Of a stretch of 64,000 nt of DNA, positions 12,740 to 15,700 are shown in pieces (position 1 is the first letter of the stretch; every line of letters starts with the position of its first letter). This stretch comes from Microbotryum violaceum (taxonomy: Eukaryota). The stretch is from assembly GCA_001244265.2 (NCBI GenBank), contig CDLV01000011.1, positions 1,178,001 through 1,242,000 of the forward strand, in the 5' to 3' direction. The notes under the pieces are model-generated. The model saw nothing but the letters and a program-made list of their open reading frames with translations. It made no database searches and had not been told where the DNA came from. Made by a program: the position numbers and the translations under genes.

Positions 12740-15700
12740 ATGGAAGAATCATCAAGAGGGGATGAGACGTCCATGTGCGCCGACCTTACTAGTGGGGTCC
12801 ATGACTTGACGGTGGTTTGAGGGTCGGCGAAGGGAGCGCTGGCGAAGTGCGTGTCATCGTCTGGATCGGCGGAGTTGCCACATAACCCGGGGAATTCGGT
12901 GTCGAGGAAGGTGGCATTTCTGCCCAGGGTGACCTTCTTTGTTGTAGTGTCGTAGAAGCGGAAGGCTTTGGAAGCCAAGTCGTAGCCGGTGAACAGAACG
13001 CGAACCGCTTTCGGGTCGAGTTTAGAGCAAAGTTCGGGCGCGACCGTGAGCCAAGCCGCACAGCCGAACGGGTGAAGCGCGGAGGCTGTGGTGCGTCCGC
13101 CCTGCCAGACCGAGTTCGGTGTTGCCTTGTCGAGAGCCGAGTGTTGAACCAGGTTCTTGCAGTAAACGAAGTAAGCCGCAGCCTCCTCCCAGAATGTCTT
13201 GGGTAGATGGGCGTCCGCCAGAAGGGCAAGAATACCTTCAACAATGGAACGATTGACCCGCTCCGCCCGACCGTTTTGTTGAGGCGTGCGAGGGATAGAG
13301 TATTGTCGACGCGTACCTCGCACCTTGCAGAACTCCGTGAATGCTCTCGAGCAATACTCGCCACCATTGTCAGTTCGGAGGACCTTCAGTGTTGCACCTG
13401 TCTCGAGCTCGACCTCGGCAAGCCAAGTCTTGAATACGCTGAAGACTTCGCTTTTATGTCCGATTGCGTAGGCCCATAGTTTGCGCGAGTAGTCGTCGAG
13501 GAACGTGACGAGGTATCGTTTGCCAGTCAAGGAACGCTCCGGGAGGGAAAGTACATCGCTGTGTACGAGGCCGAGTCTCTCGGAGGAGTGCGAATCCGAA
13601 TCGGGAAAAGGAAGACGATGGCCCTTGGCGCTGAGGCAAGCATTGCAGACAAACTTCTCTACCTCTTCGTCACTATATCCGGCCCCGAGACCCTCCAGCA
13701 AACCAGCGGCAACCATCTTCTGTATGGACGACGGTGCGAGATGGCCGAGGCAGCGGTGGAGAGTCAGCAGGGGCACGGAAGACTGTGAACGAGAGAGGAG
13801 AGCAAGGTGCTGACATTTGGAATGATCAGCGTCGAGCAAGTAGAGTCCCTCGTCGAGCCTCGTGCCTTCAGCGATGTTGTTGCCGTCTTTGTCAATATCA
13901 ATGCCGTGTTTTGTGAAGGCAACACGGACGTCGTCGGTGTCGCAAAGTCGAGAGACCGAGAGGAGATTGACGAACAGGCCGGGAGTATGCAGCACGCCAG
14001 TGAGCGTGATCGGATGGCCCGAGGCGGCAACGAAGGCGATGTTTCCCGTTCCGATGGCGTTGATGCCCCCTGCAATGCCTCCAATCTTTGTGGGAGCGAT
14101 GTGGCGATAGGTCGTGAACAGCGACTTGTCCGAGACCATGTGCGAGGTGGCCCCCGAGTCAACGACGAAAGAGTTGGTGCGAAGCTGGCGGCGACGAGCG
14201 AGAAGACCGGTGGCGATACATCCGACATGGTGTTGCGGGTCGGCGGTTGAGTTCGCCGTGTCGGCCTTTTTGCTGTTCTCGAGAGCCTTTTTGCAGTCAA
14301 AAGATCAGTGATTCTGCTTGCAGGAGCGACAGGGTCCTGGCGGCGGGTGTTTGGCTCTCACAGGGCACTCCGCCACACGGTGCGAAGGGCTGCGACAGGC
14401 GAGACACTTGGGACGGGTAGGACGTGACAACGACGAGGCAAGAAGGGCCGATTGGGTGCTGGAGACGTTGGTGGACCGGAGTTGAACACGCATGCGGTCG
14501 GCGAGCGAATCGATGGCAGGGAGAGATCGTTGGGTGCGCTGTTCGTCGGTGAACGACGCCTTGAAGCTCTCGAGGGACGGGTGTGCAATGGCGAGGAGGA
14601 GTGTGGCGAGAACATCATTGATAGTCGTCTTCGTATCGATGATTTCTTGCGCAATGGCTTTGAACTCCATGATCCAACCGTCGAATTCGCCAACGGTGCC
14701 AGGCATGGGCCGGAAGCTCCACAGTTGGGAGAAGAGCTCGAGCGTGCGAGTGGCGTCGTCAGGAGCATACCGCGATTTCAGCGTCGAATAGATTTTGGGC
14801 GCTGTGAGTTCGGCGGTAGGGATTTGGTCGAGGACTGCCGAGACGTCGGCTGAGTCGATCGAGTTCGCTAGGAGCTCACGTGCCACGACATCGCGGGCAG
14901 AGCGGTGCGAAGGTGTCCAGTTGGCGGGCACAATCCCGTCGAGGACGTATGAGCGGATGTCGTCCGCGAGGCAGAGGCGAAGCTGGCGTGTCCAGCTCGC
15001 AAACGTCTTGGGCCCATCCAAGCGTGCGTGCTTGGGAAAGGCGGGGCGAGAGGTGCCGGACGACGTGGCGGATGTGGCAGTGGTGAGACCCGACAGCAGC
15101 GACGTAAGTGCGGCGAGCTGTTCAGCGGGGATTGTTGGGTGGGCACCCGTCGTTAGGGGCGACGACGTGTCCATGCCAGCGGTAGGTCGATGGGCGAATA
15201 ACCTATGAGACGATCACCACTACTGTCAGGAGAGGTTGAATGTTGAACAGAAGTGGTCTATTTCAGCATACCTATGAGACGATCACCACTACTGTCAGGA
15301 GAGGTTGAATGTTGAACAGAAGTGGTCTATTTCAGCATACCTATGAGACAATCACCACTACTGTCAGGAGAGGTTGATTGTTGAACAGAAGTGGTGAGAG
15401 GGAAGCTAAGAAACAGAAAGGGGACCCGCGCTGAGATAGGCCCAGTCGCGGTGAAGTTGCTAGCGCGCTAAGGCAGGCGTGCGGCGCTAAGGCAGTCGCG
15501 CGCGCCTAAGTCCCACCGCAAGGGGCGGCCTAGTGGGCACGCGCACGGATCCACCCGGCGCTGGCGCGCTGAGTCAGTCGCGCGCGTCGAAGTCCCAGCG
15601 CAGGGGGGCGGGCTAGCGGGTGCGCGCAACGACCGAGGCGCCTCTGCCGAGCTGAGAGTGTACTTGTCACATCTCCTCCATTCGCTGCCTCCTCGCCCTT

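Follow-up and report, generated by a model that had tools for sequence, protein, structure and literature searches.

A 69-nt array at the end of a copia long terminal repeat

We analysed 64,000 nt of Microbotryum violaceum DNA (assembly GCA_001244265.2, contig CDLV01000011.1, positions 1,178,001 to 1,242,000; hereafter the window), the first 42 kb of which consist of long terminal repeat (LTR) retrotransposons nested in one another. Our subject is a 69-nt repeat with the form of a small intron that closes the LTRs of one of these families, family B, and that is best displayed in B2, a complete Ty1/copia element (15671-9894) recognised by its LTR pair, target site duplication (TSD) and Pfam domains. 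Coordinates are those of the window, and features lie on the minus strand unless stated otherwise. The two direct LTRs of B2 are bounded by the 5-bp TSD GGAGA (15676-15672 and 9893-9889), and its open reading frames (ORFs) encode Pol_BBD, gag_pre-integrs, rve and SH3_retrovirus followed by RVT_2, the domain order of Ty1/copia elements. The 5' LTR (15671-15204, 468 nt) and the 3' LTR (10294-9894, 401 nt) both run from TGTGA to CTCATA; the putative primer binding site (PBS) region (15203-15185) directly follows the 5' LTR, and the gag ORF begins at 15174.

Tandem Repeats Finder reports the array at 15201-15395, with a period of 69 nt, 2.8 copies and 98% matches. Read on the minus strand, 15395-15203 comprises a 55-nt core followed by two 69-nt units. 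Core 1 (15395-15341), the putative end of a first exon, is predicted to fold as a stem-loop, and its final G precedes the first donor-like sequence. Unit 1 (15340-15272; CTGAC at 15298-15294) and unit 2 (15271-15203; CTGAC at 15229-15225) are identical at 69/69 positions; each is made of a 14-nt linker beginning GTATGC and a 55-nt core, and each ends in CATAG. Core 1 and the unit core share 96% identity, and core 1 of B2 has two private variants. The branch-like A of unit 2 is at 15226, 23 nt ahead of the unit end. A sequence-only reading of the window had described these two units (GTATGC...CTGAC...CATAG) and had proposed that they are introns, the last acceptor being formed by the terminal TA of the LTR and the first G of the PBS. 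The repeat-finder output and alignment bear out the units, and the split acceptor also stands: because the LTR ends are fixed by the TSDs of a solo family B LTR (CAAAC) and of B2 (GGAGA), the final AG of the last unit consists of the LTR-terminal A (15204) and the first base of the PBS (15203). In the 3' LTR of B2 the unit occupies 9961-9893, and its last G is a base of the TSD.

The number of cores differs among copies, as the sequence-only reading had it. There is one core in the solo LTR (17856-17543), the 'unit-free' form with zero units; two in the 5' LTRs of B1 (LTR 9701-9320; unit 9387-9319, donor GTATGC) and B3 (LTR 25944-25645; unit 25712-25644) and in the 3' LTR of B2; and three in the 5' LTR of B2. 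The variant donor GTACGC ascribed to B3 was found at 25712-25707. Within the window, linker and core are confined to copies of the family B LTR, and an exact 26-nt core pattern gave 0 matches in metagenome scans; a protein-based scan recovered one metagenome locus at 29% identity, which has no LTR pair and was dropped.

Core 1 is predicted to form its stem-loop with a minimum free energy of -16.2 kcal/mol (z -3.2), and the same structure is predicted for 7/7 family B cores (z -1.3 to -3.2), being maintained with G-U and shifted-mismatch variants. The folding of the whole 281-nt leader is unremarkable (z -1.66), only the single-core hairpins standing out. The 3' half of the core is unchanged in 11/11 copies, including those in LTRs that are about 20% diverged. 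Abutting core 1 upstream is a pyrimidine-rich block (15424-15396), conserved in 5/5 family B LTRs. In filamentous fungi transcription often begins right after such a block, and this one would mark the region of transcription start; judged by eye, a block of this kind immediately precedes the repeated segment in families B, A and G, the last two of which are described below.

We asked whether the linker is simply copied from the PBS or from what lies upstream of core 1; both were ruled out, nothing being shared beyond GGT. In B2 the linker holds a four-codon frame, ATG-CTG-AAA-TAG (15337-15326 and 15268-15257), which would give unspliced leaders an upstream start codon; as a conserved feature this frame was discarded, since B1 has lost the stop and B3 the ATG.

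Several further observations concern the surroundings of B2 and its relatives. B2 is split by a solo LTR of a second copia family, family A (12739-12373, TSD TCCAT), and its target site is seen without B2 in contigs of other sequencing runs (loose end at 15672). That target is another copia-like reverse transcriptase/RNase H region (15680-17200, plus strand), 76% identical to B2's own (11610-10269); this region and the adjoining B3 fragment (17217-17541) form an inverted repeat. A lone 45-nt piece of the family B LTR end (...CTCATA) lies in the opposite orientation at 40426-40470 (plus strand), 5' of a gypsy gag, and is probably the leftover of a disrupted insertion. Paired LTRs, like repeat copies, often differ by C-to-T or G-to-A changes at CG sites (15349 versus 9970; 28091; the 35689 region), an example being the change of TCG to TTG in B2 core 1. 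Such changes fit the hypermutation resembling repeat-induced point mutation (RIP) that has been reported for Microbotryum lychnidis-dioicae (PMC4469406).

Likeness to host introns and recurrence in other families

The window contains two host genes whose proteins are 100% identical to proteins of Microbotryum lychnidis-dioicae p1A1 Lamole. Their introns were mapped by an exact spliced search of the two annotated proteins against the window. Ten introns were returned and 8 kept, the last intron of each protein being dropped because the search tries an intron first and may invent one when few residues remain. The 8 introns are 64-93 nt long, and all 8 end in YAG. Their donors are GTGCAT, GTCAGT, GTTAGC, GTGGGC, GTAGGC, GTGAGT and GTACGT (twice), so that GTNNGY is matched by 7/8, with a final C in 3/8; their branch-like motifs are CTGAT, CTAAT, CTAAC, CTCAC, CTTAC and TTGAT. 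The 69-nt unit falls inside this host range in its length, its GTATGC donor, its CTGAC 23 nt before the end and its final TAG. It has the sequence features of a U2-type GT-AG intron, with TAG/GTATGC at both 15340 and 15271, CTRAY 8-40 nt before the end, YAG and a host-like length.

We then asked how well such features predict real introns and how often they arise by chance. A strict pattern (GTNNGY, then CTRAY 8-40 nt before YAG, 50-100 nt in total) marked 3 segments with 2 donors in the 3.1 kb of sense pre-mRNA of the two host genes, and 2/3 were real, one per donor; it finds 2/8 of the real host introns. A loose pattern, with YTNAY as the branch motif, marked 7 segments with 6 donors in the same pre-mRNA, and 5/7 were real. 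In this small sample, an intron pattern within transcribed host sequence is thus a good predictor. When 100,000 69-mers from the window were treated as tandem units on a given strand, an intron phase (YAG/GTNNGY plus CTRAY 8-40 nt before the end) was present in 0.40%, and with the base composition of the LTR in 0.15%. From a density ratio of 1.84/0.58 we estimate that the loose pattern is about 3 times as likely by chance as the strict pattern. Among host genes, the models of two species disagree on a 75-nt polyprenyl synthase intron (50136-50210, plus strand), whose frame contains a stop in the window: that of M. lychnidis-dioicae (P0002) removes it, and that of M. silenes-dioicae (P0001) reads through it. 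This is likely a difference in annotation.

Segments of the same build recur in family A and in a Ty3/gypsy family, family G. Each opens with a linker whose first bases are GT, continues with a copy of the end of the preceding exon-like segment and closes with AG, and each is present in some copies and absent from others. There are four unit types in the three LTR families: the family B unit, a regular and an 'odd' unit in family A, and the gypsy unit. All four have GTNNGY right after AG, an AG end, a branch-like motif and a length of 58-75 nt, and these are exactly the limits at which they are present or absent. By our estimate from base frequencies, which was not simulated, GTNNGY straight after AG is expected about once in 2000 per linker.

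The regular units of family A (72-75 nt) read GTGTGT...CTYAC...CAG, and the 'odd' unit (68-70 nt), which is not a repeat, reads GTGAGC...GTAACTTAC...CAG. Each family A unit ends in GAGCAG and follows a segment ending in GAGCAG. At internal junctions the next segment starts with GT in 9/9 cases; the homologous segment after the last acceptor begins with GC (3 LTRs) or TT (2 LTRs). Between subfamilies the ends of the 'odd' unit are conserved (18/19 and 22/28 columns) and its middle is variable (about 10/23), a pattern that resembles that of introns. In element A1 (22864-18190, TSD CGACC), the 5' LTR (22864-22591, 274 nt) is without either unit, and the 3' LTR (18604-18190, 415 nt) has a 68-nt unit (18346-18279, GTGAGC...GTAACTTAC...CAG) followed by a 73-nt unit (18278-18206, GTGTGT...CTTAC...CAG); the two LTRs differ in length by exactly 68 + 73 nt. 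Their last 10 nt differ at 3 positions, and elsewhere they are about 98% identical. Three units, 70, 72 and 72 nt long, lie at 6973-6760 in the 5' LTR of A2 (7303-6747), and the same set recurs in another A2 LTR at 3030-3249 on the plus strand.

The gypsy segment was first flagged by a coordinate-only scan of all LTR regions, and alignment then showed the same segment to be an indel between copies. In G1 (32990-27948, TSD GTTCT) the unit, GTGAGC...CTGAT...CAG, occupies 28081-28024 in the 3' LTR (223 nt) and is absent from the 5' LTR (32990-32826, 165 nt), its 58 nt being the sole difference in length between the two. The unit closes with a 24-nt copy of the sequence immediately before it. The same 58-nt segment is present in the 3' LTR of G2 (35679-35622; LTR region 35768-35546). 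The gypsy case is independent of the two copia families. As a control, we looked at an 84-nt indel in U3 of family B: it is without a GT...AG phase, and in the LTRs of this family the scan picked out no 50-100 nt segment of U3; two more U3 indels, of 19 nt each, are too short to inform.

Families A and B had been called unrelated in sequence. This was too strong: their PBS blocks are related, that of family A (22590-22572) matching that of family B at 15/19 positions, and a 19-nt block after the LTR is conserved in B1, B2, B3 and A1. The block begins GGTTAT right after the LTR (22590-22572, 15203-15185, 9319-9301 and about 6746-6727), with two changes in B2 and B3. In family A the PBS looks able to pair with the anticodon arm of initiator tRNA-Met, as the PBS of Drosophila copia does; the window has no tRNA gene.

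Splicing weighed against other origins of the units

We favour the reading that the 69-nt unit is a real, facultative spliceosomal intron of the leader (R/U5), born by duplication, and give it a probability of about 0.55. We do so because the unit resembles host introns, the build recurs in three families and the U3 indel lacks such ends; of these the comparison with families A and G moved us most. The intron proposal of the sequence-only reading thus holds for the anatomy and gains support from sequence; splicing itself, a transcription start upstream of the donors and any benefit to the element we infer from the same sequence.

In outline, the last module of the leader, the 55-nt stem-loop that ends at the last LTR base, would have been duplicated, with the 14-nt linker beginning GTATGC separating the duplicated cores. 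Transcription would start in or just after the pyrimidine-rich block ahead of core 1, and the spliceosome would link any core end to what follows a core further downstream, removing 69 or 138 nt. The product would be a leader that has a single core and keeps the LTR-end/PBS junction, and because the junction is intact after splicing, both spliced and unspliced RNAs would be usable as mRNA and as genome. A possible benefit, by analogy, is mRNA accumulation that depends on splicing: in Cryptococcus, mRNA accumulation is reported to fall when introns are removed (PMC3744415), and splicing-dependent RNA accumulation has been reported for several mushrooms. That a working intron can arise in one step by duplication has been reported from experiment (Hellsten et al., 2011; PMC3265369). 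Judged as an intron of this origin, the family B unit has a 3' part that copies the end of the upstream exon, and a one-core form exists (17856-17543); it is no plain head-to-tail copy, the 14-nt linker being foreign beyond GGT.

A number of observations weigh against the facultative intron. One is that, in three elements with intact TSDs, unit number is unequal between the paired LTRs: B2 has 3 cores in its 5' LTR and 2 in its 3' LTR, A1 has 0 and 2 units, respectively, and G1 has 0 and 1. Reverse transcription, on the standard model, derives both LTRs of an element from a single minus-strand U3-R-U5. Because they share this template, splicing of the genome cannot make them differ, and a non-splicing process must make or remove exact units. 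Unit number therefore changes at the level of DNA or of reverse transcription, and plus-strand strong-stop template switching, later slippage or conversion, or an error of assembly must be involved. It follows that the variation in copy number, read as a trace of splicing, is no evidence for it, and this part of the sequence-only reading fails. We also considered whether the repeat variant that survives in unit-free LTRs could separate splicing from slippage, and rejected this, the informative sites being CpG sites that have mutated independently.

There are further difficulties. At least one unit is retained in 4/5 complete family B LTRs, which is unexpected if splicing is efficient and spliced RNA is the usual template. 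The branch-like A sits at the loop end of the predicted stem. CTGAC and the terminal TA are equally conserved in the first, 'exonic' cores (11/11 cores), and their conservation can be explained by U5 functions; the stem-loop of the core offers both a hot spot for template switching and a possible non-intron role for the conserved 3' half. Finally, unit counts come from one assembly of a repeat-rich region, the contigs from four sequencing runs (X15, X16, X17 and X1) being short, with none across the array. The X15 and X16 contigs extend over U3 and the flanks, and because of this coverage they behave like DNA; no joints were seen among the contigs of the four runs.

The chief alternative is that the units arose by simple tandem duplication of the U5 stem-loop, being gained and lost through template switching of reverse transcriptase or replication slippage at the hairpin, and that they are never spliced, the splice-like ends being hitch-hikers. 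In family B the AG/GT would then be the LTR-end/PBS junction carried into the duplicate, and the junction and the PBS do have GGT in common. Template switching is known to favour hairpins and direct repeats; every family B core is predicted to fold alike (7/7), the ends of the family A core are complementary over 10 nt (by eye), U3 of family B likewise varies in repeat number, and the unequal LTRs of B2, A1 and G1 must be due to a process that acts on DNA or during reverse transcription. However, slippage leaves unexplained why four linkers in three families all have GTNNGY right after AG, why the terminal homologous segment of family A lacks GT, why the 'odd' unit is conserved at its ends and variable in its middle, and why the U3 repeat has no splice-like ends. 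We consider this explanation possible, though it falls well short of being probable.

A bolder form of the intron reading, which we think improbable, is that in this intron-rich basidiomycete the units are self-restoring, heritable leader introns inside R that serve splicing-dependent RNA accumulation or export in otherwise intron-less elements, leave U5 and the PBS intact and are regained from the unspliced 3' R. Minus-strand strong-stop DNA made from a spliced genome would pair with the second of the two repeats in the unspliced 3' R, from which the intron would be copied again; such reannealing at the first strand transfer would be possible because the 3' part of the intron repeats the first exon. 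If true, this would explain the persistence of the units, their variation in number and the convergence of three unrelated families (two copia, one gypsy).

Less probable again is that the core acts in cis, as an RNA or DNA module for priming, packaging, dimerisation or integrase binding, with copy number under selection and the likeness to splice sites irrelevant. The invariant 3' half of the core (11/11 copies), the conserved stem-loop and the position of the core at the LTR tip, adjoining the PBS, would suit such a module, but one-core LTRs exist, so that one core is the minimum, a dosage effect has no support here, and the donor-like linkers are unaccounted for. In Cryptococcus transposons, stalled spliceosomes have been proposed as a source of small RNAs. 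It is very unlikely that the units, though recognised by the spliceosome, are chiefly a target of host defence, as weak leader introns that stall spliceosomes and feed small RNAs: the Cryptococcus transposon literature (PMC6643885) and a branch site partly within a stem speak for this, but the signals of the units are as good as those of host introns, and elements would be selected to shed such units.

An intron spliced from genomic RNA should be lost by a retroelement, yet in many basidiomycetes genes without introns are poorly expressed. If the favoured reading of a facultative leader intron is correct, this conflict would be resolved, since splicing would regenerate a working leader, and the window would offer a natural, recurrent case of introns born from duplications, one genome holding the pre-duplication, duplicated and 'lost' states. 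If the units are unspliced, the regular GT...AG ends across three families still require explaining.

Comparison with known systems

Tandem repeats are known from LTRs, and reverse transcriptase can delete sequence between direct repeats. The 69-nt units resemble such ordinary repeats in that copies of an element, and even its own two LTRs, can differ in how many they hold. Family B has an ordinary repeat of this kind in U3 (84 nt), which, unlike the units, is without splice-site ends. Introners are likewise short, repeated and intron-sized, with ends that supply splice sites, and they are dispersed over many unrelated genes, whereas the linkers described here are confined to LTR copies within the window. 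Retroviruses have splice donors in R or the leader, and Drosophila copia makes a spliced gag RNA. These are similar in that host splicing acts on the genomic transcript and in the possible position of the donor, within R or the leader, but they remove coding sequence to produce subgenomic mRNAs; here the coding sequence would be unchanged, and U5 and the PBS would be kept in the spliced RNA.

We found no description of units of this kind in fungal LTR elements in the literature searched; the LTR families themselves may already be included in the transposable-element consensus libraries of the genome paper (PMC4469406). In maize, canonical splice junctions have been reported in transcripts derived from the LTRs of LTR retrotransposons, and the authors claim the first evidence of introns within LTRs themselves (bioRxiv 10.64898/2026.05.08.723830). 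As reported there, the maize introns are long (mean 1303 bp), lie in non-coding RNAs contained within the LTR and are supported by reads. The units described here, seen in DNA, are in contrast 58-75 nt long and thus fungal-sized, built from repeats, polymorphic, and would restore the U5/PBS junction.

A further parallel is with the model of Rogers, in which an intron is reportedly born by tandem duplication across AGGT. A potato RNA-dependent RNA polymerase gene has been described as a case of an intron arising by tandem duplication (PMC4974935). Unlike introns of this type, the units lie in the non-coding leader of an LTR retrotransposon, up to three are chained, only the 3' 24-63 nt of the unit is copied, the linker that bears the GT is no plain copy, and we infer the splicing. 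What the two have in common is that the duplicate provides a second AG and a branch site, and that joining the first GT to a later AG restores the original RNA exactly.

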